64,000 nt of DNA from a virus. The notes under the pieces are model-generated. The model saw only the letters and a program-made list of their open reading frames with translations, ran no database searches and was not told where the DNA came from. Shown piece by piece: positions 8,809 through 39,043 of this stretch. The stretch is from IMG/VR virus record IMGVR_UViG_3300045988_154248, one strand, 5' to 3'. Both the position numbers and the translations under genes were made by a program. How positions within the stretch are numbered: position 1 is the first letter of the stretch; every line of letters begins with the position of its first letter.

Positions 8809-8906
8809 GTTACGAAGCCATAAAATCGTATTAATAGATGTTACGAAGCATGTAAAAAATCGTATTAATAGATGTTACGAAGCATGTAAAAAATCGTATT
8901 AATAGC
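8809..8906 (+). ncRNA. toxI: type III antitoxin RNA array (ToxI/antiQ-like), about 2.9 tandem repeats
   Basis: Head-to-tail units at 8809-8839 (31 nt), 8840-8873 (34 nt) and 8874-8906 (33 nt) have the form gttacgaagcatgtaaaaaatcgtattaatagat. There are no spacers. A terminator and then toxN follow. Confidence 0.8.
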
Positions 8907-11142: not shown

Positions 11143-11217
11143 CAAGCTATGGGAGGGTACTGTCAAAGGTACTCTCCTATTTCTATAACTATAACAAAAT
11201 TTTTTGGAGGTGAGAAA

Positions 11218-12308: not shown

Positions 12309-15300
12309 GTGAATATAATTTTTAATCGTTATAATGAGCCGATCCAGGGACATGTATATTTAGGAACACCAAATGGTAAAATTCTATGTGCTATTAATGG
12401 AATTGAAGAGAGTACGTTTAAGCTCACGTCAAAATTTAATAATACATTTGAATTGACGTTTGACTTGAATGAAAATATTCTTATTCAAGATGGAAAAGGT
12501 CTTTCTAAATTAGTTCATTCCAATGTATATGATCTTGTTGGATGGCTTATGCGTGTTTATGTCGAAAATGTTGGTTGGTTCATCATGGAACATCCGAAAA
12601 TTACTGACGATGGTATGAAGCAAATCAAAACAATCACATGTCAATCCGCAGAAATCGAGATGCAACAACACGATCTCAAGAATTTTAAAATCAACCAGGG
12701 AACAACAGATTCCTACGAGATGTTAGCAGATAATAATGTGGAGAAAATAGATGATGTAGAATTTGCTAAAGAACAAATCAAATTTCACAATCCTCAAAAT
12801 CCGCAACTTAGTTTGATTGATTTAGCCCTAAAAGCCGCTGGCATGAAAGGCTGGTCTGTTGGGGAAATTGATTCAACCCCAAAAACATATCGGACATATA
12901 AAGATGGAAAATATGTCGAAACTACTACTCTTCTATCTAACGAAATTGGTGCGTTTGATGTTGAGAGTCAGGACTTGTATTCTTTCTTTACACAAGATAT
13001 GGCTAAATATTTTCAGTGTGTATTTGTATTCGACTTTTTGCATATGAAAATAAGTGCTTATCATCCTGAGAATTATGGCAAGAGTACAAACGTAAATATT
13101 AATTTTCGAAACCTGCAACAATCTCAAGAAATAACAGTTGATGATAGCACTTTATTTACACGATATTATGTACAAGGTGCAGATGATCTTGGCATTACTT
13201 ATGTCAATTTTGGTTCAAATTATATTGAAAATATTGATTATTACTTAAACGAAAAATACTTCTCTCCTCTTTTAATTATTAAATATAAACTGTGGAAAGA
13301 AGACTATGAAGAAGCTCGTATATTATATATAGAAGCAACTCGTCAATATAATGAACAAATGAAAGTCGTAACAGAGCTATATGATCGCGTTCCATTGGAT
13401 GATTGTTCTACGGATTGGAGTACTTTTACAGATGATGAATTGAAAGAAGCTCAGGCTAATTACCAGGCACAACTTAAAGGATATGAACAATTTTACGTTG
13501 ATGACGATGGAAATTTCGATGAGAATGCATTAAAAAATTCTTCTGATGCTAATGACTATTATCAGATTAAAAATGTTATTCTTCCATCCATTCAGATTGA
13601 AATGGATAATCGTCAACTACCAACAGATGATGATAATGCCGATTATGTGGATTCTTACAAAACAAATTGGAAATTATATGGTTTGGATGAATTGAAAGTC
13701 AAATTGCAAGAATATAAAAACACTATCGAAACTTGTAAAAAAGGCGGATATGATCAACCATATACAGAGGATTCATCTCATACTAAAGATGTTCACGACA
13801 CAATGTACGCAAAATATCTTGATGCTCAAAACCAATTAGATTCAAATTATGTTGGAGGATGTCAAGAGGCATATGATCAGCGACAATCTGAAATTGATGC
13901 AGCAAACGAGATATTAAATAGTTATAACAAAACTCGTACAGATCTAGTAAAACAGATTTCAAAGGAAACCTGGAGTGGTGTTGTTGCTGCTGATAATTCG
14001 GGATATATTCTCGATGAGGCGGGGAATTATATAACGGATGAAGCCGGTAGAAGAATATATTGCGACACACAAAAGTTACAATTTACAGAGCGTGATCTTA
14101 CCGAGTTGTCAAAAGTGTATTATGACGGAGATTACTCAAATGAGAATATGTTTTTAACAGATTCAGACGACCAAGTATCTGCTATTGATGAGCAACTTAA
14201 GCTTCTAGATGCTGCTATTGACGATTTGTACATAGCATCTCATCCCCAATATCAGTTTACCACATCTCTTGATAATTTCTTAGCCTTGGCTGATTACGAA
14301 GATTATATAAAAAATATAAATCAGGGTGACTATCTATGGTTGACCGTAGATAATAAGGTAGTAAAACTTCGTGTAGTTGAAATACAATATAATCCGCTTA
14401 TAGCAGATAATAGTATTCAAATAACATTTTCTAATATGATACAAGGACGTAGTAGTAGAAATGACTTATCATACGTTCTAAACACACCATCAAATGCAAG
14501 TAAATCTTCCGCATCTGGTTCATCTAATAATTTCTTAAACAATGAAGGGATCACTCTTACAGCAGGCCTCATTCAAAAACTCATTTCCAATGGCGCATTT
14601 AAAAATGGCGTTTCTCAAATAATCAATAATGAATTTGCTGGTATGTTGGCTGGCGGTTCTATTTCGCTAGAAGAACTTAATGCAAAAATCATTAAAGTAA
14701 CCGATTTGTACGGTAAAAATGGATATTTCGAATACCTACAAGCAAAACTTATTACAGCAGGAAGAGTCGTTGCCGACAGTGCTGATTTTAAAGAATTATC
14801 TGCTCTTGCTGCTACCATCAAATCTGCTATCATTGGTGCTTCATCCACGGAGACAGGTATCGTAATTAATCTTACAACTGAAAATGCCACGATGAGCGAA
14901 GCGATGATCAAGGATCTTATTGCCAAATATATCACCGTTAATGAACTTAAAGCTGGCGACATCTATACAAATAAAATCAAGATTTTATCTGAAAATGGTA
15001 CGCTCAGAATTCAAGATAATACGTTCTCAATCTATGATGAAGATGGTAATGTAGTAGTTCAGCTTGGAGAAGATAAAAACGGAAATTACGGATTAATCAT
15101 ATCAGATTCCAAAGGATCTGTCTTGTTAGATTCACAAGGGCTGCACGAGGGTATTGTTCCTGATGATTTCATTAAAACGGATATGATTGCAGATGGTCAA
15201 ATTACAGAATCTAAGATTGACAAGACCACCATGCGTGACTGGACTATGCCTGACGGATCTAAAGTGTTTGATGTATCACATCTTTGGGACGGCGATGATA

Positions 15301-18125
15301 GTTTCGGAAAATCTTATAACACGATCAAATCAACCGTATCTGCGACATCTAAAGAACTTGGAGATTTATCGGACAAAGTAGATCAATTAGGAAATGGTTA
15401 TACTGTTGTTTTATCTAACGAAACCCAAAATATCCCATGTACATCTGACGGAATAACTGCGACTAGTTTTCTTATCGAAATTCCATTCTATGGTTATGAG
15501 GGAATTAAACAGGCAGTATGTACCGTGACTGTTGGTGAATTACCAGATGGAATTACTCTCGCGGAAAATACTGCTGCTACTTCTACTGCACCAGGTAAAA
15601 TCACCTTGAATGTAGCAAAAGGTAAAACACTTGGTAACAAATCTCTTCTAACAGGAACGATTGTTTTTACATGTATCGTTTCAGGAAAGAAAATTTCTAA
15701 AAAATTCACATGGATTAAATCTCTCGCTGGTAAAGATGGATCGCAAGGTATTCCAGCGCCTACATACTATACGTGGATTCGTTATGCAGATACTCCGACC
15801 AGTGGAATATCATCTGATCCAACCAATAAAACATATATTGGTATTGCGTATAATCAGACTTCTCAAACACCTAGTTCAAACTATTCTGATTATCAATGGT
15901 CAAAATTTCGCGGAGATGACGGTGCAAGTATAAAAGGCGATGACGGAAAAACGCTATATGTATGGATTAAATATGCAGATGACGCAAAAGGTACAAATAT
16001 GTCAGATGCTCCCGAAGGTAAAACTTACATGGGTATGGCATGGAATAAATCCACATCAAAAGAGAGTACTAATGCTGCGGATTATTCCTGGTCACTAATT
16101 AAAGGCGCAGACGGTAAAGATGGAAAAACCCCAGTAAAAGGCGTTGACTATTTCGATGGCGTGTCTTCCTATGTATGGATTAGATATGCAACGGACGCTA
16201 AAGGAACTGGGATGACAGCTATTCCATCCACAACAACGGGCTATATCGGAACAGCTACTACTACAACAGCTGTTGCTCCAACAAATGCTAGTGCGTATGT
16301 GTGGGCTAAATATATTGGAGAAAAAGGCGCTAAAGGTGATGGTGGTTATATTCATATTGCTTATGCTAACTCTGCTGATGGAAAGACAGGATTCGATACG
16401 ACAATCGGTACTGGGAAATCTTATATTGGACAGTATACGGATAACATCGAAGATGATAGCACGAATCCAAGCAAATATACATGGAGTTTGATCAAAGGTG
16501 CTGACGGAAAGACATTATATACATGGCTAAAATATGCTGACTCTCCTACTTCTGGTATGTCAGACAGTCCGGCTGGAAAGACGTACATGGGTATTGCTGT
16601 TAATAAAACATCTATAACTGAAAGCAGTAACTATTCTGATTATACTTGGTCGCTGATCAAAGGTACAGATGGAATTAGTGTTAAGGGCGATAAAGGTGAT
16701 ACGGTATATATCTGGGTTAAATATGCAGATGACGCAAAAGGTAATGGCATGTCTGAATATCCAGATGGCAAAAAATATATTGGTCTTGCCTATAACAAAA
16801 CCACCGCAACAGAAAGTAATAATGCTTCTGATTACATCTGGTCGTTAATTCAGGGTGAAGATGCTGTTCTTTATGAAATCGAACCATCTGTTGCAGTAAT
16901 CAAAAAATGCACTCTTGATGTATGTTCTATTACTGACGAATCTGGAAATCGAATTGTTGATGAACAAGGAAGATTTCTCTCTGCTTATTTCTTGACTGAT
17001 TCTCTTTCACCGAACAAAATCACATTTACGGCCTATAAACAAGTCGGAAGTAAAACTCGTGCCATATATGCATGTAGATTTATTATCCAGGAATCTTTAA
17101 ATGGATTATCTTGGTCAACAAAATACACGTCTTCCGAAGACGAAACGAGTGTGTCATACACTCCAAGCACCCTTAAATTACAACAAATTAAGTGTGTAAT
17201 GTATCGTGCTGGCGGCATAACTGAACAGTTAGATTCTCAGACTGTGCCTGTTATTCAAGATGCTGAAGGCTATGATTCTGTGATTCAGACATTTACGGAT
17301 ACTTTTGCATCTGTTGAGTTAAAAGTTGATAACAATACAAAAGCTATTACATTAAAAGCAGAGCAAAAAGATATAACTAATGCTATTAATAATTATGATA
17401 ACACAACAGTTAAGGACATTCGCAATCGCCAAACAGAACAAAAAGTCAATATCGACGGTATTTCAACAAAAGTATCTGATATTGAAACAACTATTAATGG
17501 ATCTGTCGATGGCACAAAAACAGGTCTTATAGAAAAGGTTACGCAAGTAACAACCAAGGCCGGAACAATTGAAGCTAATCTCAAAAATAATTATACCACA
17601 ACTGCAGGTATGAATACACAGATCAGCAACTCAATTGCTGCTAGTGCAGATAAGATTAAGGTCACTCTTGCTGATGGAAAGACGGAATCTACTCTCAAAG
17701 CCGCTTTAGGAGAAATTCAGAAGAGTGTAAAAGATAATGCAGGAAATATTTCAACAGTCACCCAAAAGGCTAATAGCATTGAAACTAAGGTTGCAAACCA
17801 AGGAAATGACATTGCGAATCTTAAAGTTGATGCAAAAGCCGTCGAGACGTTGGTTGGAAGTTCTGCTGGTACAACTGATGTTGTTCAAAAAGCAACAGAT
17901 TTTCGAAAGACGATTACAGATGCTGCCGGAAATGCAAATCTTGCTCTTAGCACCGCGAATTCAAATAAAAATATTATTTCAAACATGAAAGTTGGAGCTG
18001 CAAATACAATTCGCAATTCCAATGATCTTATTTACGATTTATATTTTATGGTTGCCAGTCTACGTGACGAAAGTGGTAATCGCATAGTAGCTGAAAATGG
18101 CGATTATTTAGTTGCATATTATTAA
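12309..18125 (+). CDS. tail-associated (Tal-like) minor structural / fibre protein, 1938 aa
   Basis: GTG start 3 nt after the Dit stop. It has a Tal-type N-terminus, a long coiled-coil region and six repeated WxKYAD modules separated by collagen-like G-x-x stretches. Confidence 0.8.
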   Translation: MNIIFNRYNEPIQGHVYLGTPNGKILCAINGIEESTFKLTSKFNNTFELTFDLNENILIQDGKGLSKLVHSNVYDLVGWLMRVYVENVGWFIMEHPKITDDGMKQIKTITCQSAEIEMQQHDLKNFKINQGTTDSYEMLADNNVEKIDDVEFAKEQIKFHNPQNPQLSLIDLALKAAGMKGWSVGEIDSTPKTYRTYKDGKYVETTTLLSNEIGAFDVESQDLYSFFTQDMAKYFQCVFVFDFLHMKISAYHPENYGKSTNVNINFRNLQQSQEITVDDSTLFTRYYVQGADDLGITYVNFGSNYIENIDYYLNEKYFSPLLIIKYKLWKEDYEEARILYIEATRQYNEQMKVVTELYDRVPLDDCSTDWSTFTDDELKEAQANYQAQLKGYEQFYVDDDGNFDENALKNSSDANDYYQIKNVILPSIQIEMDNRQLPTDDDNADYVDSYKTNWKLYGLDELKVKLQEYKNTIETCKKGGYDQPYTEDSSHTKDVHDTMYAKYLDAQNQLDSNYVGGCQEAYDQRQSEIDAANEILNSYNKTRTDLVKQISKETWSGVVAADNSGYILDEAGNYITDEAGRRIYCDTQKLQFTERDLTELSKVYYDGDYSNENMFLTDSDDQVSAIDEQLKLLDAAIDDLYIASHPQYQFTTSLDNFLALADYEDYIKNINQGDYLWLTVDNKVVKLRVVEIQYNPLIADNSIQITFSNMIQGRSSRNDLSYVLNTPSNASKSSASGSSNNFLNNEGITLTAGLIQKLISNGAFKNGVSQIINNEFAGMLAGGSISLEELNAKIIKVTDLYGKNGYFEYLQAKLITAGRVVADSADFKELSALAATIKSAIIGASSTETGIVINLTTENATMSEAMIKDLIAKYITVNELKAGDIYTNKIKILSENGTLRIQDNTFSIYDEDGNVVVQLGEDKNGNYGLIISDSKGSVLLDSQGLHEGIVPDDFIKTDMIADGQITESKIDKTTMRDWTMPDGSKVFDVSHLWDGDDSFGKSYNTIKSTVSATSKELGDLSDKVDQLGNGYTVVLSNETQNIPCTSDGITATSFLIEIPFYGYEGIKQAVCTVTVGELPDGITLAENTAATSTAPGKITLNVAKGKTLGNKSLLTGTIVFTCIVSGKKISKKFTWIKSLAGKDGSQGIPAPTYYTWIRYADTPTSGISSDPTNKTYIGIAYNQTSQTPSSNYSDYQWSKFRGDDGASIKGDDGKTLYVWIKYADDAKGTNMSDAPEGKTYMGMAWNKSTSKESTNAADYSWSLIKGADGKDGKTPVKGVDYFDGVSSYVWIRYATDAKGTGMTAIPSTTTGYIGTATTTTAVAPTNASAYVWAKYIGEKGAKGDGGYIHIAYANSADGKTGFDTTIGTGKSYIGQYTDNIEDDSTNPSKYTWSLIKGADGKTLYTWLKYADSPTSGMSDSPAGKTYMGIAVNKTSITESSNYSDYTWSLIKGTDGISVKGDKGDTVYIWVKYADDAKGNGMSEYPDGKKYIGLAYNKTTATESNNASDYIWSLIQGEDAVLYEIEPSVAVIKKCTLDVCSITDESGNRIVDEQGRFLSAYFLTDSLSPNKITFTAYKQVGSKTRAIYACRFIIQESLNGLSWSTKYTSSEDETSVSYTPSTLKLQQIKCVMYRAGGITEQLDSQTVPVIQDAEGYDSVIQTFTDTFASVELKVDNNTKAITLKAEQKDITNAINNYDNTTVKDIRNRQTEQKVNIDGISTKVSDIETTINGSVDGTKTGLIEKVTQVTTKAGTIEANLKNNYTTTAGMNTQISNSIAASADKIKVTLADGKTESTLKAALGEIQKSVKDNAGNISTVTQKANSIETKVANQGNDIANLKVDAKAVETLVGSSAGTTDVVQKATDFRKTITDAAGNANLALSTANSNKNIISNMKVGAANTIRNSNDLIYDLYFMVASLRDESGNRIVAENGDYLVAYY
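15750..16865 (+). repeat. six tandem 55-70-aa protein modules inside Tal
   Basis: The pattern (Y/V)xW(I/L)(K/R)YA(D)...GM(S)..P.GK.Y(I/M)G.A.N...ES.N..DY.WS(L)IKG.DG recurs six times in the translation. Confidence 0.6.
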
Positions 18126-18130
18126 TTTTA

Positions 18131-18162
18131 TTACTCCTCATTGATTTGAGGAGTAACTTTTA
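18131..18162 (+). terminator. intrinsic terminator after Tal
   Basis: ttactcctc-attgattt-gaggagtaa followed by cttttat. Confidence 0.6.
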
Positions 18163-18180
18163 TAAGGAGGTAATACACTT

Positions 18181-18666
18181 ATGGCAAGTGATAAAATGTT
18201 AGGTAGTTTTGATCAAAAATCTGCACCAGAAGATAATGATCTTTTGGTAGAATACGATGCTGCTGCATCGAAAGTTAAGAATGTGAAGTTCGGAGGTGTG
18301 TGGAACTGGATAGTTAAGAAATTGACATCCGCCGTAATTAATGAGTTACAAACATCAAGTAAGAATGTAGTGGGGGCTATTAATGAATTAAATAGTAAGA
18401 AAGCGATTTGCACCACTGGTTGGGAAAACGGTAATGCAAAATCTATTTTTGAAATATTTTCGCCAACTTCTCCAAATGGTATTTATAGTTATTATAATAT
18501 TAAAGATATTCCATTTTATCATTCTCCTACAGATGCCTATGTAACAATAATAAAAGGACATGAGTTAATTATTGCTTTTAATGAACAGAGTATTTTTATA
18601 ACAGGAAGTTCAAGAAATACATGGACAAAGGAATGGCATTCTATCAAGCTTGGTATCCTATCTTAA
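18181..18666 (+). CDS. shufflon expression locus: tail-fibre tip protein (constant residues 1-73 plus currently fused cassette A, 88 aa)
   Basis: This is the only ORF in the locus with AGGAGG plus ATG. Site F1 is in frame as L-N-S-K at codons 70-73. The stop TAA 18664-18666 lies inside site F2. The cassette ends ...RNTWTKEWHSIKLGILS. Confidence 0.8.
   Translation: MASDKMLGSFDQKSAPEDNDLLVEYDAAASKVKNVKFGGVWNWIVKKLTSAVINELQTSSKNVVGAINELNSKKAICTTGWENGNAKSIFEIFSPTSPNGIYSYYNIKDIPFYHSPTDAYVTIIKGHELIIAFNEQSIFITGSSRNTWTKEWHSIKLGILS
18388..18399 (+). repeat. shufflon crossover site F1 (TTAAATAGTAAG), forward orientation
   Basis: Exact 12-mer, in frame as Leu-Asn-Ser-Lys in the expressed gene. Confidence 0.8.
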
Positions 18667-18674
18667 ATAGTAAG
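18663..18674 (+). repeat. shufflon crossover site F2 (TTAAATAGTAAG), forward orientation
   Basis: Exact 12-mer. It supplies the stop of cassette A in one frame and the NSK entry of cassette B in another. Confidence 0.8.
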
Positions 18675-19397
18675 ACATTATTACATAATGCAGGTGGTCA
18701 TAACTCTATCTTCAGAGGTAAGAACTTAGGTACATCTTACACATCTGCGATGTCTAAGGCTATTCAGGCGGGTACATTTGATGACCTGTATGTAGGTGAT
18801 TACCTTACAATCAACGGTACTGTATATCGAATCGCTGGATTCAATCTTGGAAAACAGATTGGAGGCAACGCATCTATGGGTAACTGCATGTGCCTCGTTC
18901 CTGACTCTGCTCTGTATAGCGCACAGATGCACAATACGGATAGTGGTCAGTATACAGAAGGTTCTGCTGCAAATACAACAACCGGTGCATATGCAAATTC
19001 TGATATGAGAACCACCAACCTTGCACAGGCAACTCAGAAGATTGTGAACGACTTCGGTTCTACTCATGTAATGTCTTACAGAGATATCCTGCCGAACGCA
19101 ACCGCTAACGGACAGGCTTCTGGATGGGCTTGGTATGACTGTAAAGTTGAACTGATGTCTGAGGTTATGGTGTACGGAACAACTGTATGGGCTAATAGCG
19201 GATATGAAGTTGGATGTATCAACTCTCAGCTCCCACTGTTCGCTCTCGCTCCTGAATATATTCACCGTCGCTTCGTCTATTGGCTCCGTGGTGTTGGGAG
19301 TGCGACTTCCTTCGCTTCTGTGAGCAACGCCGGTTATGCGACCAACACCAACGCTTCTTTTTCTTATGGTGTTCGTCCGTTTTTCTTCGTTAATTAA
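18675..19397 (+). CDS. silent forward cassette B (240 aa), start-less C-terminal module
   Basis: It reads NSK/TLLHNAGGHNSIF...YWLRGVGSATSFASVSNAGYATNTNASFSYGVRPFFFVN from site F2. There is no SD before the in-frame ATGs at 18621 and 18633. The YWLR...GVRP C-terminal pattern differs from the small cassettes. Confidence 0.65.
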   Translation, partial: TLLHNAGGHNSIFRGKNLGTSYTSAMSKAIQAGTFDDLYVGDYLTINGTVYRIAGFNLGKQIGGNASMGNCMCLVPDSALYSAQMHNTDSGQYTEGSAANTTTGAYANSDMRTTNLAQATQKIVNDFGSTHVMSYRDILPNATANGQASGWAWYDCKVELMSEVMVYGTTVWANSGYEVGCINSQLPLFALAPEYIHRRFVYWLRGVGSATSFASVSNAGYATNTNASFSYGVRPFFFVN

Positions 19398-19536
19398 GAT
19401 TTTTACGTGCATAGAAACGGGAATAATAGCTATTGACTGCGGATTTAATTGGTTTATATTTTTCAAGTATTTGATGAGAGAATATGGGAATGTGGTAATA
19501 GAAATTGCCAAAATTTCCCAAGGAGGTAGGTTAATA

Positions 19537-20535
19537 TTGACAAAATTAGAAAATATTCTCGAGCAAATACTTGAAAAATTACAGGATAGCTTAACGCATG
19601 AACAGCTTTCGGAATTAGAAAGCACTATGGTTATTGCATTCCACGGAATCGAGGTACAAGAAGAACACACTCAGTTAGTAACATCAGAGCGTACATGGGA
19701 GAAGATTCTTCGGATGTATTGTGCCGCAAAGCGTGTTGAAAATTGCTCCGAAAGAACTATTAAAGGTTACAGTCGATGCATTATTCAGTTTTTCACGCAG
19801 ATCAACAAGAAAATAAATAACATAACTACGAATGATATTAGATATTATTTGGCATTTTTTCAAGAAACGCATCATACTTCTATTGTATATCTTGATAACA
19901 TACGTAGGTATCTTAATTCATTTTTTACATGGGCTGCGGATGAAGGATATATACAATCAAATCCTATGCGAAAACTCAAGAAAATGAGAGTACCTACTAA
20001 ACTTAAAAAAACATTTTCAGCAGCAGAGATGGAAGAACTTCGTTGCAGTGCAAACTCTCAGAGAGATATTGCAATTATGGAATTTTTATATTGTACTGCT
20101 ACTCGTATTGGAGAGGCAGTTAGCGTTAATCGCTCGGATATTGATTGGCAAAGAAAAGAATTAATTGTTTATGGAGAAAAGGGCAAGAAAGAACGTACTG
20201 TTTATTTGACAGATCGCTGCATTTATCATCTTAAAAAATATCTTGATGAAAGAAAAGATACAAATGAAGCTTTATTTGTATCCTCAAAATCTCCACATAA
20301 GCGACTTGGAGTTCAGGCAATTCAGTCTATGTTGGCAGCGTTAGGTAAAAAGACAAATATTCACGTACATGCTCATAAATTTCGAAGGACGTTACTTACG
20401 GATGCAGGAAAACGTGGTATGCCATTACAAGAGATTCAGGTCTATGCAGGACACGCCAAGCCAGATACAACGATGCAATATGTAATGGTTCAACAAGAAC
20501 GTGTTAAATCGAATTTTATGAAAAATATTGCATAA
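19537..20535 (+). CDS. tyrosine site-specific recombinase (XerC/D / phage-integrase family), candidate shufflon invertase
   Basis: TTG start 19537 lies 10 nt after AGGAGG. Catalytic contexts are ATRIGEA (Arg), HAHKFRRT (His-x-x-Arg) and AGHAKPDTTMQY (His...Tyr). The gene sits between the forward and inverted sites. Confidence 0.85.
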   Translation: MTKLENILEQILEKLQDSLTHEQLSELESTMVIAFHGIEVQEEHTQLVTSERTWEKILRMYCAAKRVENCSERTIKGYSRCIIQFFTQINKKINNITTNDIRYYLAFFQETHHTSIVYLDNIRRYLNSFFTWAADEGYIQSNPMRKLKKMRVPTKLKKTFSAAEMEELRCSANSQRDIAIMEFLYCTATRIGEAVSVNRSDIDWQRKELIVYGEKGKKERTVYLTDRCIYHLKKYLDERKDTNEALFVSSKSPHKRLGVQAIQSMLAALGKKTNIHVHAHKFRRTLLTDAGKRGMPLQEIQVYAGHAKPDTTMQYVMVQQERVKSNFMKNIA

Positions 20536-20689
20536 TTTTTATAAATAGTCTAATAAAAATACCCTTATTTTTTGATCGCCCATTGGACGGTCTATTTATC
20601 GTGTATGTATATATTGATATTTTGCAATTTTGTAGGTTGCATGTTTTTATTCTTGTATTTATATTAAATCCGCAGTCTATAGAATTATT

Positions 20690-20989
20690 TTAACCAAATA
20701 ATAATCCATTCACTTTGTAAAAGGACTCCAATTTGGAGTTTCCGTTAAAAGTAATTTTACCCAAATCTGTATTAATAGCAATACTTGACGTATCGGTATT
20801 TGACGCAGTGAAAGAAAGTAGTTTCATAGACCATTTTGTTCCATAATTGATAACAATCGAAAAATACACACCACTTCCAATATTACCGGAAATCAATAAT
20901 AAACCGATAGCGGTGTCCGATATATTATATTTGATCGTTGCTGTTTTGTCATTTATTGTCGTATTAACGTCTATTGGTTTGATTCTTGT
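20690..20989 (-). CDS. silent cassette R1 (99 aa), start-less
   Basis: The minus strand from site R1 reads NSK/TRIKPIDVNTTINDKTATIKYNISDTAIGLLLISGNIGSG...LLFG*. The frame is continuous from the site. Confidence 0.7.
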   Translation of the reverse strand, partial: TRIKPIDVNTTINDKTATIKYNISDTAIGLLLISGNIGSGVYFSIVINYGTKWSMKLLSFTASNTDTSSIAINTDLGKITFNGNSKLESFYKVNGLLFG

Positions 20990-21001
20990 CTTACTATTTT
21001 A
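20990..21001 (-). repeat. shufflon site R1, inverted (rc TAAAATAGTAAG)
   Basis: Core AAATAGTAA is present. It contains the stop codon of cassette R2. Confidence 0.75.
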
Positions 21002-21247
21002 TTGAGCTGTAAAATATTTCCATTCAGTCCAACTGTCAGTATTTCTTTTTCTTCTGATGGCAATCTTATCATGTCCAAAAGAAAATGCTAATTGAGCGGT
21101 GTAATTACCGGTACCTAAATTCTGTTGGATAACAAAACATGCGTTTGACCCAAGTCCACTTGGTAATCCTATTGGATTAATTTTTGTATCTAATATGGGG
21201 CATTTCGGCGGATTGTTTAGATCAGTGATATTGTTCACATATATTGC
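20999..21247 (-). CDS. silent cassette R2 (82 aa)
   Basis: NSK/AIYVNNITDLNNPPKCP...RNTDSWTEWKYFTAQ*. It shares the W-x-x-W tail motif with cassettes A, R6 and R8. Confidence 0.7.
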   Translation of the reverse strand, partial: AIYVNNITDLNNPPKCPILDTKINPIGLPSGLGSNACFVIQQNLGTGNYTAQLAFSFGHDKIAIRRKRNTDSWTEWKYFTAQ

Positions 21248-21259
21248 CTTACTATTTAA
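21248..21259 (-). repeat. shufflon site R2, inverted (rc TTAAATAGTAAG)
   Basis: Exact 12-mer. The TAG inside it ends cassette R3. Confidence 0.8.
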
Positions 21260-21557
21260 TTAACACTGCAGCAGAAAATCTATATAAAGTATTTTGTGTC
21301 GAACTTCCAATTGTTATTTGACCATCCAGCTCAATTGAACCAAACATACAATACGGATCAGTTGGCATACTTCCTACTTGAAATATGATCTGTGTTACAT
21401 TGATGGCATTAATATCATTTATCTTAGCTAAAACATACTGGATGCCTGTATTTTGTGCAGTCACATAACCTTCTACTATTAATACTTTTCCGTATGAAAC
21501 AGCAGATATATGCCCTTGGTTTGATCCATACAAAATGTCATAACTTTTAATTTCCGT
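21252..21557 (-). CDS. silent cassette R3 (101 aa)
   Basis: NSK/TEIKSYDILYGSNQGHISAVSYGK...FSAAVLIK*. Confidence 0.7.
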   Translation of the reverse strand, partial: TEIKSYDILYGSNQGHISAVSYGKVLIVEGYVTAQNTGIQYVLAKINDINAINVTQIIFQVGSMPTDPYCMFGSIELDGQITIGSSTQNTLYRFSAAVLIK

Positions 21558-21569
21558 TTTACTATTTTA
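21558..21569 (-). repeat. shufflon site R3, inverted (rc TAAAATAGTAAA)
   Basis: Core is present. The AAA codon keeps Lys. The TAA inside it ends cassette R4. Confidence 0.75.
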
Positions 21570-21827
21570 TCTATACGTATATACATAACAACAGAATGTA
21601 AAGTTAATGCTAGTATTCATAATGAGTTTATTGCCATTCAACGTTACAGAATTTATCCTTGAATTTTCTTTTATTGAATAAATATGTCCAGCCGATGCAT
21701 CATAAAATGTTGAAAATAAATATAAAGCACATCCATCATATGGATGAGAAAAAGATAGTAATCCACATGAAAGAGGAACTAATTCTATTTCTTTCACTCC
21801 GTTTTCGAAAGTCGTTCCGATAACAGT
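21567..21827 (-). CDS. silent cassette R4 (86 aa)
   Basis: NSK/TVIGTTFENGVKEIELVPLSCGL...CCYVYTYR*. Confidence 0.7.
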   Translation of the reverse strand, partial: TVIGTTFENGVKEIELVPLSCGLLSFSHPYDGCALYLFSTFYDASAGHIYSIKENSRINSVTLNGNKLIMNTSINFTFCCYVYTYR

Positions 21828-21839
21828 TTTACTATTTTA
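21828..21839 (-). repeat. shufflon site R4, inverted (rc TAAAATAGTAAA)
   Basis: Identical to R3. The TAA inside it ends cassette R5. Confidence 0.75.
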
Positions 21840-22145
21840 TTCTTCTTTCACGATTGCATTTTTTATGTTTTCATAATAGATAATGATAACAGCATTTGCA
21901 TACTGTGGAAAATTTGAAAACTTTACATTTTGTATAGAATCATTATCGTTACACTTTATTGTGACATCACCTGTTTTTAATGTATTATTTATTTTCCCAA
22001 TAGTACCTGTTAAAAATGTTGAACCTCCGAATAACGCGAATGGAGCATATGATATGTCGTTATTTCCTTCTTTATTTATAGAAATAGTTACCGACTTTAT
22101 ATTGGCTCCAGAAGTTCTATATATCAATAAATTATTAAAGACTTG
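21837..22145 (-). CDS. silent cassette R5 (102 aa)
   Basis: NSN/QVFNNLLIYRTSGANIKSVTISINKEGNND...NAIVKEE*. Confidence 0.7.
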   Translation of the reverse strand, partial: QVFNNLLIYRTSGANIKSVTISINKEGNNDISYAPFALFGGSTFLTGTIGKINNTLKTGDVTIKCNDNDSIQNVKFSNFPQYANAVIIIYYENIKNAIVKEE

Positions 22146-22157
22146 ATTACTATTTAA
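22146..22157 (-). repeat. shufflon site R5, inverted (rc TTAAATAGTAAT)
   Basis: Core is present, Lys codon replaced by Asn. The TAA inside it ends cassette R6. Confidence 0.75.
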
Positions 22158-22402
22158 TGCCAATTGCCCCACGTACCATCACTAAAATCATATATTCTTA
22201 TGCTAACATTCCATACAATAGAATATCTCACGGCATATTGTATTTTAATTCCGTCTTGCATAGATCCAATGCAAAATATAAAATACATATTAGCGTCTGG
22301 TTTGTTTAAAGCAGAAGAAAATGCAATAGCAGATTCTCCGATAGGTAAATCATTACAATCTTTATATTTTCCTTCGCCATAAATTTGTTGTAAACACAAT
22401 CT
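22154..22402 (-). CDS. silent cassette R6 (82 aa)
   Basis: NSK/RLCLQQIYGEGKYKDCNDLPIGE...IYDFSDGTWGNWH*. Confidence 0.7.
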   Translation of the reverse strand, partial: RLCLQQIYGEGKYKDCNDLPIGESAIAFSSALNKPDANMYFIFCIGSMQDGIKIQYAVRYSIVWNVSIRIYDFSDGTWGNWH

Positions 22403-22414
22403 CTTACTATTTAA
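22403..22414 (-). repeat. shufflon site R6, inverted (rc TTAAATAGTAAG)
   Basis: Exact 12-mer. The TAA inside it ends cassette R7. Confidence 0.8.
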
Positions 22415-22698
22415 CTTATAGTCACAAGATCAAGGCAGATTAAAAATGCTGCGCTCCATGGACCAAGTGTCACTTTTAATGTTGCCAAAGAAGCATCAAG
22501 TACGGGTGGTGCTGCAGATCCAGTTCCTTTTGATATTTCTGCCACTCCCGATATCCTTCCTGTTATGTATGCAGAGGTATTGCGGTTGTTATCAATTAGT
22601 AAAAACGAAGTCATATGACTGTTTACACCACCCCACTTTACGCTTACTGTTTTGGCAGAGTCATTACTATATATAATATAACTATTGGCATTGAACCG
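22411..22698 (-). CDS. silent cassette R7 (95 aa)
   Basis: NSK/RFNANSYIIYSNDSAKTVSVKWGGVNSHMTSFLLIDNN...LDLVTIS*. Confidence 0.7.
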   Translation of the reverse strand, partial: RFNANSYIIYSNDSAKTVSVKWGGVNSHMTSFLLIDNNRNTSAYITGRISGVAEISKGTGSAAPPVLDASLATLKVTLGPWSAAFLICLDLVTIS

Positions 22699-22710
22699 CT
22701 TACTATTTAA
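22699..22710 (-). repeat. shufflon site R7, inverted (rc TTAAATAGTAAG)
   Basis: Exact 12-mer. Confidence 0.8.
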
Positions 22711-22739
22711 TTAAAGTGAACGAAAATCTGGAAAATTCA

Positions 22740-23005
22740 TTATATTTTCTTCCAAGTACACCAATTGTTTATGTCTGTAATCATGGATCGATAGAAAATA
22801 TTCTCATGGTTTCCAGGTAGGATAATTTGTGTTACTCTACCAATAGATTCTGCAAAAATGAAAACAAAACAATTAGTACAATGTTGTTCTGTTGGCTCGT
22901 TCTTTACTCGTAGATTACCTGATAAATAATATACGTTCGAAGATGTTAAATTGTTAATCAATATCATGCAACGCAATTGCATTTTTCAAAATCTTTTGAA
23001 AACAT
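22740..23005 (-). pseudogene. cassette R8, out of frame with its entry site (frameshifted or decayed cassette)
   Basis: From site R8 the NSK frame reads MFSKDFEKCNCVA and then stops. The 80-codon ORF 22740-22982, which ends ...DINNWCTWKKI like cassettes A, R2 and R6, lies in a different frame. Confidence 0.6.
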
Positions 23006-23017
23006 CTTACTATTTTT
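23006..23017 (-). repeat. shufflon site R8, inverted (rc AAAAATAGTAAG)
   Basis: Core is present. The stop of cassette R9 lies 3 nt away. Confidence 0.75.
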
Positions 23018-23019
23018 AT

Positions 23020-23313
23020 TTATTGCATTGCAAAAAAGAATATCTTTGTTATTGTTTCATCATTAGTAATATGAGATGTAAAGTTCCACCCATTTCCATC
23101 GAGTGAAAAAATAATACCGGATATCTTAATTGATGATTGATCATAAACAATTTTTTGCACTATAGCAGAATAGCCTTTAAGGTGATTTTTCCAACTTCCG
23201 CAGATGTTAAAGATCCCGTTGTTTTGCCATCTTGTCTTAGATATAATCAAATTAATAAGTGATTCAATATCATTGCTTTCCTGTTGTGGAATATTTTTTG
23301 TTTTTGCTTGGAG
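23020..23313 (-). CDS. silent cassette R9 (97 aa)
   Basis: NSN/LQAKTKNIPQQESNDIESLINLIISKTRWQNNG...KIFFFAMQ*. The track ORF 23020-23421 reads through the site and is an artefact upstream of it. Confidence 0.7.
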   Translation of the reverse strand, partial: LQAKTKNIPQQESNDIESLINLIISKTRWQNNGIFNICGSWKNHLKGYSAIVQKIVYDQSSIKISGIIFSLDGNGWNFTSHITNDETITKIFFFAMQ

Positions 23314-23325
23314 ATTACTATTTAA
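23314..23325 (-). repeat. shufflon site R9, inverted (rc TTAAATAGTAAT)
   Basis: Core is present. The TAG inside it ends cassette R10. Confidence 0.75.
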
Positions 23326-23464
23326 CATCATATATGCCAATTTTTTGCGTTTCTTTATTAAATATAACCTGTATATTTCCTGCCTTTTCGGTATAAAAAA
23401 CAAAACCAAATTGATTATCATTCCAAGACTGTATAATGATTTTTTTTATATTAAAGAATGCCGT
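23318..23464 (-). CDS. silent cassette R10 (48 aa)
   Basis: NSK/TAFFNIKKIIIQSWNDNQFGFVFYTEKAGNIQVIFNKETQKIGIYDVK*. Below the ORF-track size cutoff; found by manual translation. Confidence 0.6.
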   Translation of the reverse strand, partial: TAFFNIKKIIIQSWNDNQFGFVFYTEKAGNIQVIFNKETQKIGIYDVK

Positions 23465-23476
23465 CTTACTATTTAA
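23465..23476 (-). repeat. shufflon site R10, inverted (rc TTAAATAGTAAG)
   Basis: Exact 12-mer. Confidence 0.8.
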
Positions 23477-23525
23477 TCCACCAGATGAAACTCTGCTTTC
23501 ATCCTATTTTTGTTCCTCAATTTTC

Positions 23526-23557
23526 CTTGAAAACACTGGGTTTTTTTGAAACCCGTG
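23526..23557 (-). terminator. minus-strand intrinsic terminator between sites R11 and R10
   Basis: The rc reads cacgggttt-caaaa-aaacccagtg followed by ttttc. Confidence 0.5.
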
Positions 23558-23592
23558 AAAGATAATATTGACCATTTTCAATCACTAAGGAG

Positions 23593-24504
23593 GTGATTAC
23601 TATTTATACTTTAATTCAAGAATCTGTTACTGGTCTAAATGGCGAAAAAGTAACTTGTGGACATCTCAGCTGTAATGAAAAAAGCACACTACGTTTAAAT
23701 GATGTTCTTCGGAATTCAGGAGATTATACATTCCAGATGAAAATCAAGGCGAAAGCTGCATCTACTGTTCAACTAAGTATTGGGACATTAACAGAAAACT
23801 TTTCAGTCACTACTTCTTTTCAACAATTTAATAGAGTATGCAAAAATATCAACACTGCTACACATAAATATATCGAAATCACATTTCCTTCAGGTGATTA
23901 TTGGTTCTACAATATGCAACTTGAAATGGGAAACCTCCCAACTGCTTGGTCTTTATGCTTAGACGATTTAAACGATGCAATTGGAGCGCAATCTACATGG
24001 ATCGAACAGACTACGCAAAAAATAAGTTTGTTTGCACAAAAAAATGATGTAAACGAAGCAAAGGCTGAAATGAGGGTCGAAGCAGATGGAATGATTTCAG
24101 AAGCTTTAAAATCTTATGTTACAAGTGATGATTTTGGAGACTATAAAACAGAAACAAAAACAAGATTTGAACAAACGGATAACCAGTTCGGATTTTATGT
24201 ACAAAAAGATACATATGACGGGCTGAACAGTACAGTCAATAATTTGAAATCGAATCAGGAAAATTATTTTCAATTTGATGCAAATGGTTTAAAAATAGGA
24301 AAGAAAAATAATCCATACCAGGTTGTTATAGATAATGAAAAATATCAGATGTTAGGAAATGGACAGCCACTTATGTACATTCAATATGGTGAGCTTAACA
24401 TTCCTGATGTTATTATTACCCATCAGCTTAGAATGTTAGGATATTCTTTTACTCTTGATTCAGCTGGAAATACGAATTGTCAGTTTGTCGGAACGGGAGG
24501 TTGA
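23593..24504 (+). CDS. tail fibre / baseplate protein with an N-terminal CBM-like domain
   Basis: GTG start after AAGGAGG. The motif YWFYNMQLEMGNLPTAWSLCLDD is typical of phage fibre carbohydrate-binding-like modules. A coiled-coil middle region follows. Confidence 0.65.
   Translation: MITIYTLIQESVTGLNGEKVTCGHLSCNEKSTLRLNDVLRNSGDYTFQMKIKAKAASTVQLSIGTLTENFSVTTSFQQFNRVCKNINTATHKYIEITFPSGDYWFYNMQLEMGNLPTAWSLCLDDLNDAIGAQSTWIEQTTQKISLFAQKNDVNEAKAEMRVEADGMISEALKSYVTSDDFGDYKTETKTRFEQTDNQFGFYVQKDTYDGLNSTVNNLKSNQENYFQFDANGLKIGKKNNPYQVVIDNEKYQMLGNGQPLMYIQYGELNIPDVIITHQLRMLGYSFTLDSAGNTNCQFVGTGG
23596..23607 (-). repeat. shufflon site R11, inverted (rc ATAAATAGTAAT), overlapping codons 2-5 of the next tail gene
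   Basis: It matches R5/R9 at 12 of 13 positions (gattactattta). The minus-strand reading gives only NSN/HLLSD*. Confidence 0.6.
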
Positions 24505-24507
24505 TAA

Positions 24508-26352
24508 ATGGGATCATTTTCTACAAACGCTTATGGTGAAGGTCGTTATTATACCTTTACATATTCTACAAGCCAGGATCAAGTCAAAAACACAACAACT
24601 TTAAACTGGACGTTATCGTGTGCAGGTGGTGTATCTTGGTATGCTGAAAGAACTTTAATTCTAACAATTGATGGAAGTAATGTCGTAAGCAAAACAGATC
24701 GTGTAGCTCGTTATGCAGGAAATATCGCGTCAGGTTCTAAAACATTTACACACGATGCAAATGGAAATAAATCTATTTCGGTAAAAATTCAAGCAGCTGT
24801 TGAGACTTCAAGTATCACATGTTCTGGTAGTTCCACTATTACTTTTCCACAGATTAAAAGGAAATCAACTTTTGGAACTGTAAGTGGAAATACAATTGGC
24901 GGTACAGTAACGATTAATATTAATAGAAACAATTCTTCATTTACACATTCTCTTTGGTATAAAGTTAAAGAAAATGGAAGTTGGGTTGAGGCGGTTAAAA
25001 ACGTAGCAACTTCTGGCTCCTTTACTCTTCCAATGTCTATTTGTTCGAGTATACCAAATGATAATAGTGTGTATATCGGCTTATGTATTCAGACATTTAA
25101 CGGAAGTACGGAGATAGGAAACTCCTACTCCTCTATTACTGCTTATGTTCCATTATCTGCTGCACCAACAGTATCATTTACATTAAGCGATAATAAAGGA
25201 TATTCTGGTACATATGGTGGATATGTACAAAACAACTCTGCATTACATATAGCCACTACAGCCACAGCAAATAATTCTGCGACTATCAAAACAATCACAG
25301 TTAAAGCCACCATTAGTGGAACTACGTATACATATTATGGAAGTAGTGTTAATATATCTCTTCCAACATCCGGTACTTGGACAATATCCGTTTCTGCTAC
25401 GGATAGCAGAGGAAAATCAACAACAGCGGCTTCTCAATCAATTACAGTTCTCGCATATAGCAATCCAACAATTACAGCTTTATCGGCAAGACGAACGGAT
25501 TCTTCTGGAAATGCAACATCAAACGGCTCATATTTACAAGTTATATTCTCAGCCACTGCAACAAGTCTGAATAGTAAAAACACAACAACGTTTCAGATAA
25601 AATATAAAAAGAAAAGCGTTTCTTCTTACACTTCCGCCACCCTATCTTCTTATCAAAATAAATATTCAGTTTCTGGTGGTTCATATATTTTCCAAGCAGA
25701 AACATCTTCTGGTTATGATATTCAATTAGTTGTCACAGATAAATTCAAAACAGTAATTTCTCAAACAACTGGTAATTCCGTTTCAAAGGTATTCTCTTTC
25801 TTTAAAAACGGATTAGGTATAGCTTTTGGAAAAGTTGCTGAAGCTGAGGCTATTGCCGAATTTGATTGGAAAATCAAAGCGAATAAAGGATTAACAGTCA
25901 GTGGAACCGATATTAATGTGTTAATTAATAATGCCGTACAGAAATTATATCCTGTAGGGCATATTTTAATGTCTACCAATTCTGCCAATCCATCTACTTA
26001 TTTAGGTTTTGGAACTTGGGTTGCATGGGGATCTGGACGAGTACCTGTCGGTGTCAATTCTTCTGACACTGATTTTAGTACAGTAGAGAAAACAGGTGGT
26101 GCAAAAACTGTTAATGTATCACACTATCATACTGAATCAATCGGAGCAGATTCTGGTTATATGTATTTGTCTGCTGGAGCGAACGGTGGTTTGTTTGGAT
26201 CAGGAGTAAGATCCAATGTTGGGAACATGAGCTGGAAAGGAACTGTCAATACTAGTGCTGTGCGTTTAAATAATACTAATACAGCTGGAAGTACGACATT
26301 AAATAACTTGCAGCCATACGTAACATGTTACATGTGGAAAAGGACTGCATAG
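24508..26352 (+). CDS. tail fibre / receptor-binding-type structural protein
   Basis: N-terminus (GRYYTFTYSTSQDQVKNTTTLNWTL) is like siphovirus DUF859-type proteins. The C-terminus (GTWVAWGSGRVPVG...LQPYVTCYMWKRTA) is like tail-collar fibre tips. Confidence 0.65.
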   Translation: MGSFSTNAYGEGRYYTFTYSTSQDQVKNTTTLNWTLSCAGGVSWYAERTLILTIDGSNVVSKTDRVARYAGNIASGSKTFTHDANGNKSISVKIQAAVETSSITCSGSSTITFPQIKRKSTFGTVSGNTIGGTVTININRNNSSFTHSLWYKVKENGSWVEAVKNVATSGSFTLPMSICSSIPNDNSVYIGLCIQTFNGSTEIGNSYSSITAYVPLSAAPTVSFTLSDNKGYSGTYGGYVQNNSALHIATTATANNSATIKTITVKATISGTTYTYYGSSVNISLPTSGTWTISVSATDSRGKSTTAASQSITVLAYSNPTITALSARRTDSSGNATSNGSYLQVIFSATATSLNSKNTTTFQIKYKKKSVSSYTSATLSSYQNKYSVSGGSYIFQAETSSGYDIQLVVTDKFKTVISQTTGNSVSKVFSFFKNGLGIAFGKVAEAEAIAEFDWKIKANKGLTVSGTDINVLINNAVQKLYPVGHILMSTNSANPSTYLGFGTWVAWGSGRVPVGVNSSDTDFSTVEKTGGAKTVNVSHYHTESIGADSGYMYLSAGANGGLFGSGVRSNVGNMSWKGTVNTSAVRLNNTNTAGSTTLNNLQPYVTCYMWKRTA

Positions 26353-38139: not shown

Positions 38140-38165
38140 TAGTGGACTTGGCGTAATATCACCTC

Positions 38166-38989: not shown

Positions 38990-39043
38990 ATTTCTCCTAA
39001 CAGGGCTGGAAATAATACATCCAGCCCATATAATATTTAATGA

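Follow-up and report, generated by a model that had tools for sequence, protein, structure and literature searches.

A putative tyrosine-recombinase shufflon offering alternative protein tips in the tail module of a large human-gut phage

The IMG/VR virus record IMGVR_UViG_3300045988_154248 contributed a 64-kb stretch of DNA (64,000 nucleotides, here called the window) in which a cluster of short repeats, a tyrosine recombinase gene and a row of start-less open reading frames (ORFs) are surrounded by a siphovirus-type tail module. The 9-mer AAATAGTAA occurs 14 times in the window, compared with a mean of 2.04 and a maximum of 6 in dinucleotide shuffles, and 0/100 shuffles reached 14. Thirteen of the 14 copies fall within 18390-23605, two on the plus strand (12-mers at 18388 and 18663) and eleven on the minus strand; a search of the window thereby returned the same copies, coordinates and orientations that an initial sequence-only reading of this DNA had given. 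The remaining copy, at 49464, is solitary and fits chance. The consensus 12-bp crossover site, ATTAAATAGTAA, reads L-N-S-K/N, and the window holds 12 working sites.

Conservation of the site extends over only ~12-13 bp, A-T-[T/A]-AAATAGTAA-[G/T/A/C]-[A/C], and the flanks are unrelated, according to an alignment of the window copies and a logo built from 134 distinct site contexts of related contigs. Because the logo is conserved solely from -3 to +10 and contains no dyad partner arm, the site is asymmetric, with one conserved arm plus spacer as in R64-type systems. The 12-mer is open in a single frame, while its other frames give the stop codon of the preceding cassette. Consistent with the earlier proposal that the site mostly supplies the stop of its neighbour, the stop codon lies inside the next site for 8/10 minus-strand cassettes.

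The first forward site (S1, 18388..18399, plus strand, TTAAATAGTAAG) is in frame within an ORF of 161 codons (18181-18666), where L-N-S-K forms codons 70-73. This ORF had been singled out for its ribosome-binding site (RBS), which is AAGGAGG at 18164-18170. The RBS together with codons 1-69 of the expressed gene (18164..18387, plus strand) makes up the constant N-terminal segment, which corresponds to Rc of the Rin system discussed below. The second forward site (S2, 18663..18674, plus strand) gives the TAA stop of W1, the cassette that is now joined to this segment, and a terminator-like hairpin lies between the expressed gene and an upstream gene for a 1938-aa tail protein.

Read in the N-S-K/N frame, the sites open into cassettes of 91 and 243 aa on the plus strand and of 102, 85, 104, 89, 105, 85, 98, 16, 100, 51 and 8 aa on the minus strand. 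No cassette begins with Met, several contain no Met at all, and they lack start codons and RBSs of their own, which is at odds with a possibility raised in the sequence-only reading, that the small ORFs are independently translated from their own starts. That reading had also assigned every inverted copy an ORF of 48-102 codons, which does not hold for two of the eleven (16 codons at 23006 and 8 codons at 23596); its remark that every site-to-stop distance is a multiple of 3 is correct, but true by construction.

In the labels used here, W1-W12 are the cassettes of the window, n with a number denotes cassettes absent from the window, and related contigs and database proteins are labelled L and P, respectively. 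W1 (91 aa; 18391..18666, plus strand), the tip now joined to the constant segment, occupies a silent minus-strand place in L011 and has other upstream contexts in P0006-P0012. W2 (243 aa; 18666..19397, plus strand), a long tip domain, is silent in the window, whereas in L011 it forms a 313-aa gene together with the constant segment. The others are on the minus strand: W3 (102 aa; 20690..21001, site S3 at 20990-21001), fused to the constant segment in L007, L008 and 18 database protein clusters; W4 (85 aa; 20999..21259, S4 at 21248-21259); W5 (104 aa; 21252..21569, S5 at 21558-21569), expressed in L013; W6 (89 aa; 21567..21839, S6 at 21828-21839), expressed in L042 and L044; W7 (105 aa; 21837..22157, S7 at 22146-22157), directly behind the constant segment in L002, L004, L009, L038 and L046; W8 (85 aa; 22154..22414, S8 at 22403-22414); W9 (98 aa; 22411..22710, S9 at 22699-22710), expressed in L034; and W11 (100 aa; 23020..23325, S11 at 23314-23325). 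W10 (22740..23017, S10 at 23006-23017) is frameshifted, with 16 in-frame codons followed, after a GAAAAAT run, by an 80-codon ORF in the -1 frame (22740-22982). The same frameshift, again leaving 16 aa, is present in 5/5 relatives bearing this cassette; W10 would be an inherited pseudo-cassette or one whose reading depends on -1 slippage. W12 (51 aa; 23318..23476, minus strand), seen behind the constant segment in P0081, opens at S12 (23465-23476), which is the right-hand boundary of the shufflon: relatives are constant to the right of S12 and variable to its left.

Between the two orientations of sites, as the sequence-only reading had recognized, lies a gene for an Xer-like tyrosine recombinase of 332 aa with a probable TTG start (19537..20535, plus strand), the presumed invertase. 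Its matches to PF00589 (8.7e-31) and to the SAM-like N-terminal domain PF13495 (2e-11) span residues ~63-321, leaving the first ~60 residues without a domain match. In NCBIfam the top-scoring models are XerA, XerC and XerD, all below the family cut-offs, and domain searches in Pfam and NCBIfam revealed no resemblance to an arm-binding domain. The protein, which is the only recombinase in the locus, is of the tyrosine type and not a serine resolvase/invertase. A refuting outcome named in the sequence-only reading, that it proves to be the prophage integrase, fits poorly with an enzyme that is Xer-like, bears no sign of an arm-binding domain and is not a lambda-type integrase. The exact protein is found in 310 blocks of public assemblies.

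The leader of the recombinase gene contains a predicted stem-loop (19458..19579, plus strand; minimum free energy -40.8 kcal/mol, z-score -6.5), whose 16-bp perfect stem encloses the RBS and the TTG start. This structure, as modeled, may attenuate translation of the invertase, which would fit low expression. A promoter scan was uninformative, with 36 matches against 30 expected, and a -35/-10 pair across the left flanking repeat described below (19433-19460) was not relied upon.

Relatives of the locus were collected by an exact search of IMG/VR for the end of the constant segment (3 contigs, 109-209 kb), by an exact look-up of the recombinase, from which 10 contigs of 201-212 kb from human-gut metagenomes were examined, by a scan of metagenome contigs (14 more) and by a look-up of the 161-aa protein of the window (6 more). 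In ~35 related contigs with recombinases 98-100% identical, the intersite segments are 91-100% identical to those of the window and stand in different order and orientation. All breakpoints among the relatives are located in the 9-mer, and the sequence of every relative diverges from the window exactly at S1. These ~35 distinct contigs exhibit nearly as many arrangements, all of which obey the rule of forward cassettes, recombinase, reverse cassettes, the invariant that is expected if inversion between a forward and a reverse site is the sole reaction.

With C for the constant segment, > for forward and < for reverse cassettes, the window reads C >W1 >W2 [REC+] <W3 <W4 <W5 <W6 <W7 <W8 <W9 <W10 <W11 <W12, L011 reads C >W2 [REC+] <W3 <W5 <W7 <W8 <W10 <W11 <W12 <W6 <W1 <W4 <W9, L002 begins C >W7 >W4 >W6 and L007 begins C >W3 [REC+] <W2. 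L011 carries the same 12 cassettes at 98.9-100% identity, its recombinase DNA is 100% identical, and it is at least 8 inversions away from the window. In L002, window positions 16062-18398 are joined straight to 22158->21829 (W7), followed by W4 and W6. The balance of sites on the two sides of the recombinase ranges from 15 forward and 2 reverse in L006 to 1 forward and 15 reverse in L008. Two contigs (L056 and L058) have the arrangement of the window along with an 8.2-kb flank that is 100% identical. L059, with 1 mismatch in 8,494 nt of upstream flank, nevertheless has W9, W4, W11-W10 and W8-W6 inverted and permuted, with breakpoints at sites; because it is rearranged at this level of identity, rearrangement must greatly outpace point substitution.

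The thirteenth copy of the 9-mer (S13, 23596..23607, minus strand) overlaps the RBS and GTG start of the downstream tail gene and opens only 8 codons. It is never a breakpoint, its flanks being constant in all relatives that extend that far, and it is missing in L001, where the downstream gene is merely 71% identical. S13 may be a relic, or it may be a site where recombination would be lethal.

Inversion between 18388 and an inverted site had been predicted to fuse a new tip in frame, and the relatives bear this out, with in-frame fusions whose junctions lie at the 9-mer. When all sources are considered, the constant segment is found fused in frame to W1, W2, W3, W4, W5, W6, W7, W8, W11 and W12 and to many cassettes that are absent from the window. 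The segment itself is 98.5-100% identical across 14 contigs regardless of what comes after it. Tail families were counted in the 120 best of the 333 database matches to the 161-aa protein: the constant segment is present and invariant in 112/120, followed by different tails, and is joined in frame to at least 30 cassette families, including W1, W3, W4, W5, W6, W7, W8, W11 and W12. In other homologues W1 stands behind unrelated upstream sequence; these are W1 copies in silent positions for which the gene caller chose a spurious start. The fine structure of the junctions places the crossover inside the 9-mer, because bases -3 to -1 stay with the upstream element (always ATT for the constant segment), while bases from +9 travel with the cassette. 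Of 241 silent cassettes, 11.6% are short or defective, but in 31/31 contigs the cassette at the expression site is full-length (P ~0.02).

The repertoire of cassettes is large. Complete loci carry from 5 to 16 working sites, and the full-length cassettes comprise at least 44 types in 29 groups that are unconnected by phmmer at E < 1e-3. A W-x-x-W motif near the C-terminus is found in 14 cassette types; the sequence-only reading had listed it for four cassettes of the window, for one of which (its cassette A) the motif is in fact W-x-x-x-W. The W2 domain is widespread (3985 clusters, some tagged PF19789), mostly as the C-terminal part of 310-aa proteins on 30-60-kb gut phage contigs, where it follows a different N-terminus ending in ...LPAAINELY..., and this common head domain was apparently captured by the shufflon. 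In a diverged lineage, whose constant segment reads MAKFTDYTEK..., the GAINELNSK junction and the W1 cassette are retained; W1 at ~90% identity occurs in a lineage with a constant segment ~45% identical. L055 (MT836842.1), of a diverged lineage, has a constant-plus-cassette gene with a single site and an adjacent integrase 30% identical to the recombinase, without an array; it was considered as a distant shufflon and rejected, since it has one site only.

Beyond the collected contigs, the locus is also present on a 468-kb contig of NCBI assembly GCA_008680665.1. A megablast search of positions 17000-24600 against 50,697 GenBank phage records gave no match, and the closest recombinases of cultured phages, from phages of C. 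scindens, C. perfringens and Terrisporobacter, are 28-32% identical. A repeated 11-mer in L032, whose recombinase is 34% identical, was considered as a site family and dropped, as it is a coding repeat of the collagen-like Gly-X-Y kind.

The sequence-only reading overlooked a second pair of inverted repeats, which surrounds the recombinase gene. R-left (19430..19449, minus strand; core at 19438-19449) and R-right (20663..20682, plus strand; core at 20663-20674) are 20 nt long and 95% complementary, and contain a perfect 12-bp core, ATTAAATCCGCA. This core has its first 7 bp, ATTAAAT, in common with the cassette sites and differs from them in the last 5 (CCGCA vs AGTAA). In relatives, the inner flanks of ATTAAATCCGCA stay with the recombinase, and the outer flanks swap among W2, W3, n7, n9, n12, n25 and n30. 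Because all inverted pairs of cassette sites straddle the recombinase gene, every cassette inversion flips it. The gene is in the orientation of the tail operon in 23/24 distinct contigs, with W3 to its left in about one third of them and to its right in the rest, and it keeps this orientation because the second inverted repeat pair flanks it. In L044 (>W9 >n7 [REC+] <W3 <n5 <n2) the array is the exact mirror image of that in L010 and L013 (>n2 >n5 >W3 [REC+] <n7 <W9) and the recombinase is still forward, which requires one inversion at cassette sites and one at the second pair; the recombinase module flips independently.

The only contig with a backward recombinase, L004, has an IS256-family (Transposase_mut) insertion beside the gene (L004 11251-12492), the 8 bp at window positions 20618-20625 apparently being its duplicated target. 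A second IS256-family insertion was seen at a different place, in L010 (18356-19597). In L025 and L029, with recombinases 56-59% identical and 4-5 sites, the gene lies between outward-facing inverted sites nested in an inward-facing pair, and these sequences suggest that self-inversion of this gene is conserved. The predominance of the forward orientation could reflect selection against convergent transcription in a late operon, or orientation-dependent expression with forward as the resting state. In L012 and L043, the cassette site beside the recombinase opens a 374-codon frame that runs through ATTAAATCCGCA into the recombinase ORF; placed behind the constant segment, this frame would encode a fusion of the tail-protein N-terminus to the recombinase, which is probably incidental. 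One lineage, found in several samples, has only 6 sites and a recombinase truncated to its last 118-126 codons (L036 ~3780-4280; L047-L050, e.g. L047 10559-10915), and is a naturally frozen shufflon.

The neighboring genes indicate where the variable protein might act. Upstream of the locus are genes for an Ig-domain major-tail-like protein (9685-11142), a Dit-like protein with DUF6558 (11149-12306) and the 1938-aa tail protein (12309-18125); downstream are the 303-aa tail protein with the GTG start (23593-24504) and a DUF859 protein with a Gp10_C domain (24508-26352). The 1938-aa protein contains ~6 tandem units of ~55 aa (...YxWIKYADxxxG...MSDxPxGKxYMGxAxNK...) and varies from 1807 to 2334 aa among close relatives. 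Searches of Pfam and PHROGs found nothing for the constant segment, W1 or W2. An AlphaFold2 model of the constant segment with W1 (mean predicted local distance difference test score, pLDDT, 65) places a long helix at residues 37-72 ahead of a beta domain (pLDDT 70-86). Foldseek gave no match to this model at E <= 0.001; its weaker matches range from E 2.6e-3 to 0.08, the best in the Protein Data Bank (PDB) being a baseplate chain of Staphylococcus phage phi812 (E 0.045, probability 0.98) and the best named viral folds being tail fibers, namely Stf of Salmonella phage FSL SP-126, an S74-domain fiber and a tail-fiber-repeat protein. It was concluded that the product is a small modular tail-tip protein, with an exchangeable head on a conserved adaptor and short neck motif. 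The constant N-terminus probably anchors it to the tail tip, and receptor binding is the likeliest function, the term tail fiber being suggested by gene context and these fold matches.

Taken together, these observations indicate that the locus is very probably a multiple-inversion system, or shufflon, in the tail module of a siphovirus-like human-gut phage of ~205 kb, which provides alternative tips for one protein. Twelve cassettes, start-less, apparently promoter-less and mostly of 85-105 codons (the exceptions being those of 243 and 51 codons and the frameshifted one), each open with the same site, and lie forward to the left of the recombinase gene and backward to its right. The recombinase would join a forward with an inverted site and invert the intervening DNA, which would bring a new cassette in frame behind the constant segment, so that the virion would carry one of many alternative tips, and these tips would set host range. 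Inversion between the nested ATTAAATCCGCA pair would then turn the recombinase gene back to the direction of the tail operon. Strand exchange by tyrosine recombinases requires identical overlap regions. Because the last five bases of the two cores differ, one enzyme acting at two mutually incompatible site classes is the simplest reading, and the two classes are presumably kept apart by their differing crossover halves.

More tentatively, the system may be a self-righting shufflon of two tiers, in which one recombinase serves two orthogonal site classes, shuffling comes in bursts, and cassettes are exchanged between phages as site-bounded units. The binding half (ATTAAAT) would be common to both classes, and the crossover half (AGTAA vs CCGCA) would tell them apart. 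Inversion at the second class may couple expression of the recombinase to its own orientation, giving bursts of shuffling that would end when the gene is righted. If this is true, a prevalent gut phage would have an open, integron-like pan-repertoire of at least 44 receptor-binding tips.

Several points weigh against the interpretation of the locus as a shufflon for receptor-binding tips. Switching within a population would have to be read from differences between assemblies, the closest pair of which comes from different samples, and action of the recombinase at both site classes is presumed from the sequence of the sites. The conserved site, at ~12-13 bp, leaves little room for the core and both binding arms that a tyrosine recombinase uses, and one has to postulate accessory factors or recognition of the non-conserved arm. 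Long arrays contain directly repeated sites and yet show no obvious deletion, although the range of 5 to 16 cassettes per genome means that cassettes must at times be lost or gained. When GTDB representative genomes were scanned with the recombinase, only distant matches (28-38%) turned up, in metagenome-assembled genomes of Verrucomicrobia, and no host was assigned. A sequence-profile search of the PDB with the constant segment plus cassette found no solved structure, and fold support for a receptor-binding role, which derives from the model, is weak. Finally, alleles of one cassette have a pooled ratio of nonsynonymous to synonymous polymorphism (pN/pS) of ~1.05, with values >2 for several cassettes and amino-acid changes clustered at few positions, a pattern that fits diversifying selection on contact loops, although a pN/pS of ~1 fits relaxed constraint equally. 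In view of the pooled value, purifying selection on silent cassettes was dropped as evidence for coding and replaced by the ORFs staying open and the in-frame fusions.

It is very improbable that the locus is a static family of small paralogues sharing L-N-S-K, in which the contigs differ through homologous or microhomology recombination or through misassembly and the recombinase acts elsewhere, as an integrase or in dimer resolution. The conserved DNA is indeed short (~12 bp), the enzyme resembles Xer proteins, which resolve dimers, and in L055 the same type of gene has a single site and no array, beside the 30% identical integrase. Assemblers of short reads can be misled by short repeats, but a 12-bp repeat is far below read length and cannot cause systematic misassembly, and the same alternative junctions recur in independent assemblies from different pipelines. 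Breakpoints confined to the 9-mer, an orientation rule for inversion across the recombinase that is always kept, cassettes without start codons or RBS (several without Met) and in-frame fusions of the constant segment to at least 30 families are likewise hard to reconcile with static paralogues, as is the finding of site, junction motif and recombinase together in relatives at 56-60% recombinase identity. Inversion could also be secondary to circular excision and re-integration of cassettes, as in integrons and possibly between co-infecting phages. Cassette content differs greatly between contigs with identical recombinases (5-16 sites per locus, at least 44 full-length types), arrays of directly repeated sites are a substrate for excision, the best NCBIfam model is labelled site-specific tyrosine recombinase/integron integrase, and W1 is common, at ~90% identity, to the lineage with the ~45% identical constant segment. 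These differences in content may, however, also come from deletion or from homologous exchange in the flanks, and for the window, L011 and L059, which hold one cassette set permuted and inverted, inversions suffice. Moreover, block inversions (L044 vs L010 and L013) keep the internal order in mirror image, as inversion predicts. The assemblies showed neither cassette circles nor empty sites, and excision as the chief route is considered unlikely.

A different kind of doubt concerns the purpose of the inversion, which might be real and yet act on something other than a receptor-binding fiber, e.g. a tail accessory or decoration protein or an anti-defense decoy, with a purpose other than host range. 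Such a role would agree with the lack of sequence matches in Pfam, PHROG and PDB for the constant segment or W1, with a structural model of moderate confidence whose fold matches have E values of 2.6e-3 or worse, and with the terminator-like hairpin that parts the gene from the 1938-aa tail gene. It is improbable in light of the position of the gene, downstream of Dit and between the 1938-aa protein and two further tail proteins, which is the usual place of receptor-binding proteins in siphoviruses of Gram-positive hosts, and of the named top fold matches, nearly all of which are tail fibers or baseplate proteins. The product, at 160-175 aa with an N-terminal helix and a beta domain of ~90 aa, also has what we take to be the general layout of small receptor-binding proteins of the lactococcal type. 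Published analogues, too, act on receptor-binding proteins (PMC6109161, PMC13596623).

The closest of these analogues to the present shufflon is the Rin system, described in the Bifidobacterium prophages Bb423phi1 and Bl157phi1 (Mavrich et al. 2018, PMC6109161) and later in Eggerthella lenta prophages (PMC8778435). It consists of an Xer-like armless tyrosine invertase, a constant N-terminal segment, 5 variable cassettes and 11-bp asymmetric rix sites, and inversions were found between prophage and virion DNA (PMC6109161). The statement, in the sequence-only reading, that phage fiber switches use serine invertases is therefore outdated, Rin being a tyrosine invertase (PMC6109161, PMC8778435). 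As in Rin, a short Xer-like tyrosine recombinase without an arm-binding domain (compared by domain layout) is encoded by the phage at the locus, the constant N-terminus of a tail protein, a receptor-binding protein in Rin and probably one here, is accompanied by start-less cassettes that are each preceded by an asymmetric in-frame repeat of ~11 bp, direct and inverted sites coexist, and related genomes are inverted exactly at the sites. In functional terms the locus is a shufflon of the Rin type. It differs from Rin in its site, ATTAAATAGTAA being unrelated to rix TTCCCTAACCC, and in its capacity: Rin has 5 cassettes, whereas the window has 12, a genome can have as many as 16, and at least 44 types occur among the relatives. 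The rin gene is at the edge of its array, while the recombinase gene described here is central, turns over with each inversion of cassettes and is bounded by inverted sites of its own, of a second class; furthermore, Rin belongs to prophages of ~40 kb in high-GC Actinobacteria, in contrast to a low-GC phage of ~205 kb.

Other systems are similar in part. The shufflon of R64/IncI plasmids (Rci, sfx, pilV; cited in PMC9881135) likewise uses a tyrosine recombinase, multiple inversions and asymmetric sites of one arm plus spacer to provide the constant N-terminus of an adhesin with alternative C-terminal segments, and its segments hold convergent cassettes. Its variable protein, however, is the tip adhesin PilV of a plasmid conjugative pilus and not the product of a phage tail-module gene, there are 7 sfx sites and 4 segments, rci lies outside the shufflon, and sfx is conserved at ~19 of 31 bp. 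The recombinase of the window, unlike Rci, scores best with Xer models. In Mu Gin, P1 Cin, e14 Pin and p15B Min, as outlined in PMC6109161, the C-terminus of a tail fiber is also exchanged by inversion, and Min is a true multi-site shufflon; these systems differ from the present case in using a serine recombinase, a Fis-dependent enhancer and 26-bp dyad-symmetric sites, of which there are 2 (Gin, Cin) or 6 (Min), with the invertase gene outside the invertible DNA.

A BV01-like phage of Phocaeicola vulgatus (PMC13596623, a 2026 preprint) resembles the present phage in that it is a gut phage with a multi-cassette shufflon, adjacent to a recombinase, that overlaps the distal end of a tail-fiber gene, has 10-bp directional motifs and occurs in several configurations in metagenomic reads. 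It has only 3 cassettes in 1.7 kb, giving six isoforms, and its motif is TGGGAGAACT; in addition, the phage is temperate, its host belongs to the Bacteroidota, and its recombinase flanks the shufflon rather than being nested within it (PMC13596623). The vsa locus of Mycoplasma pulmonis and vpma of M. agalactiae (PMC2268961, together with general background) combine a single expressed 5' end with many silent 5'-truncated cassettes, and an adjacent Xer-like tyrosine recombinase acts on short conserved sites at the cassette 5' ends. They differ in specifying cellular surface lipoproteins that undergo antigenic variation and in having a recombinase that is not between opposed arrays. No description of a nested recombinase-inversion arrangement was found in the open-access literature. 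In Salmonella Hin/hix the invertase gene is also within the segment that it inverts, but the enzyme is a serine recombinase that inverts a single segment as a promoter switch, and no second site class restores the orientation of the recombinase gene. Tyrosine-recombinase shufflons on phage receptor-binding proteins (Rin, 2018, and the BV01-like system, 2026) have already been published, and what is new here is the size, the site sequence and the central recombinase with its second tier of sites.

Host range is the main limit on phage infection and the main engineering target for phage therapy. With 12-16 interchangeable tips per genome drawn from a pool of dozens, the locus is several times larger than any phage shufflon published in the open-access literature, and it amounts to a natural library of ~90-aa tip domains on a common 69-aa adaptor. 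The compact 12-bp recombination site, which doubles as linker codons and stop signal, and a possibly orthogonal site pair for one recombinase would be useful in tools for synthetic DNA shuffling. Shuffling also explains possible breaks and variation of this region in metagenome assemblies.

Other features of the window lie outside the array. A type III toxin-antitoxin pair is found in the structural region. Its ToxN-family toxin gene (8947-9507; PF13958, 5.8e-43) follows 2.9 tandem copies of a 34-nt repeat (8809-8905), which resemble an antitoxin RNA array of the ToxI type, and L009 and L011 have the same toxin gene. A set of genes for nucleotide metabolism (36713-41206, minus strand) encodes the anaerobic ribonucleotide reductase NrdD together with its radical-SAM activase, as well as a dUTPase/dCTP-deaminase-like protein, which suits a large phage with an anaerobic host. 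A Tn7/Mu-like transposition module (30124-34540, minus strand), composed of a TnsB-like protein (rve + Mu-transpos_C), TniB (AAA_22) and TniQ, lies immediately downstream of the endolysin gene and occupies the same place in all related contigs of ~205 kb.

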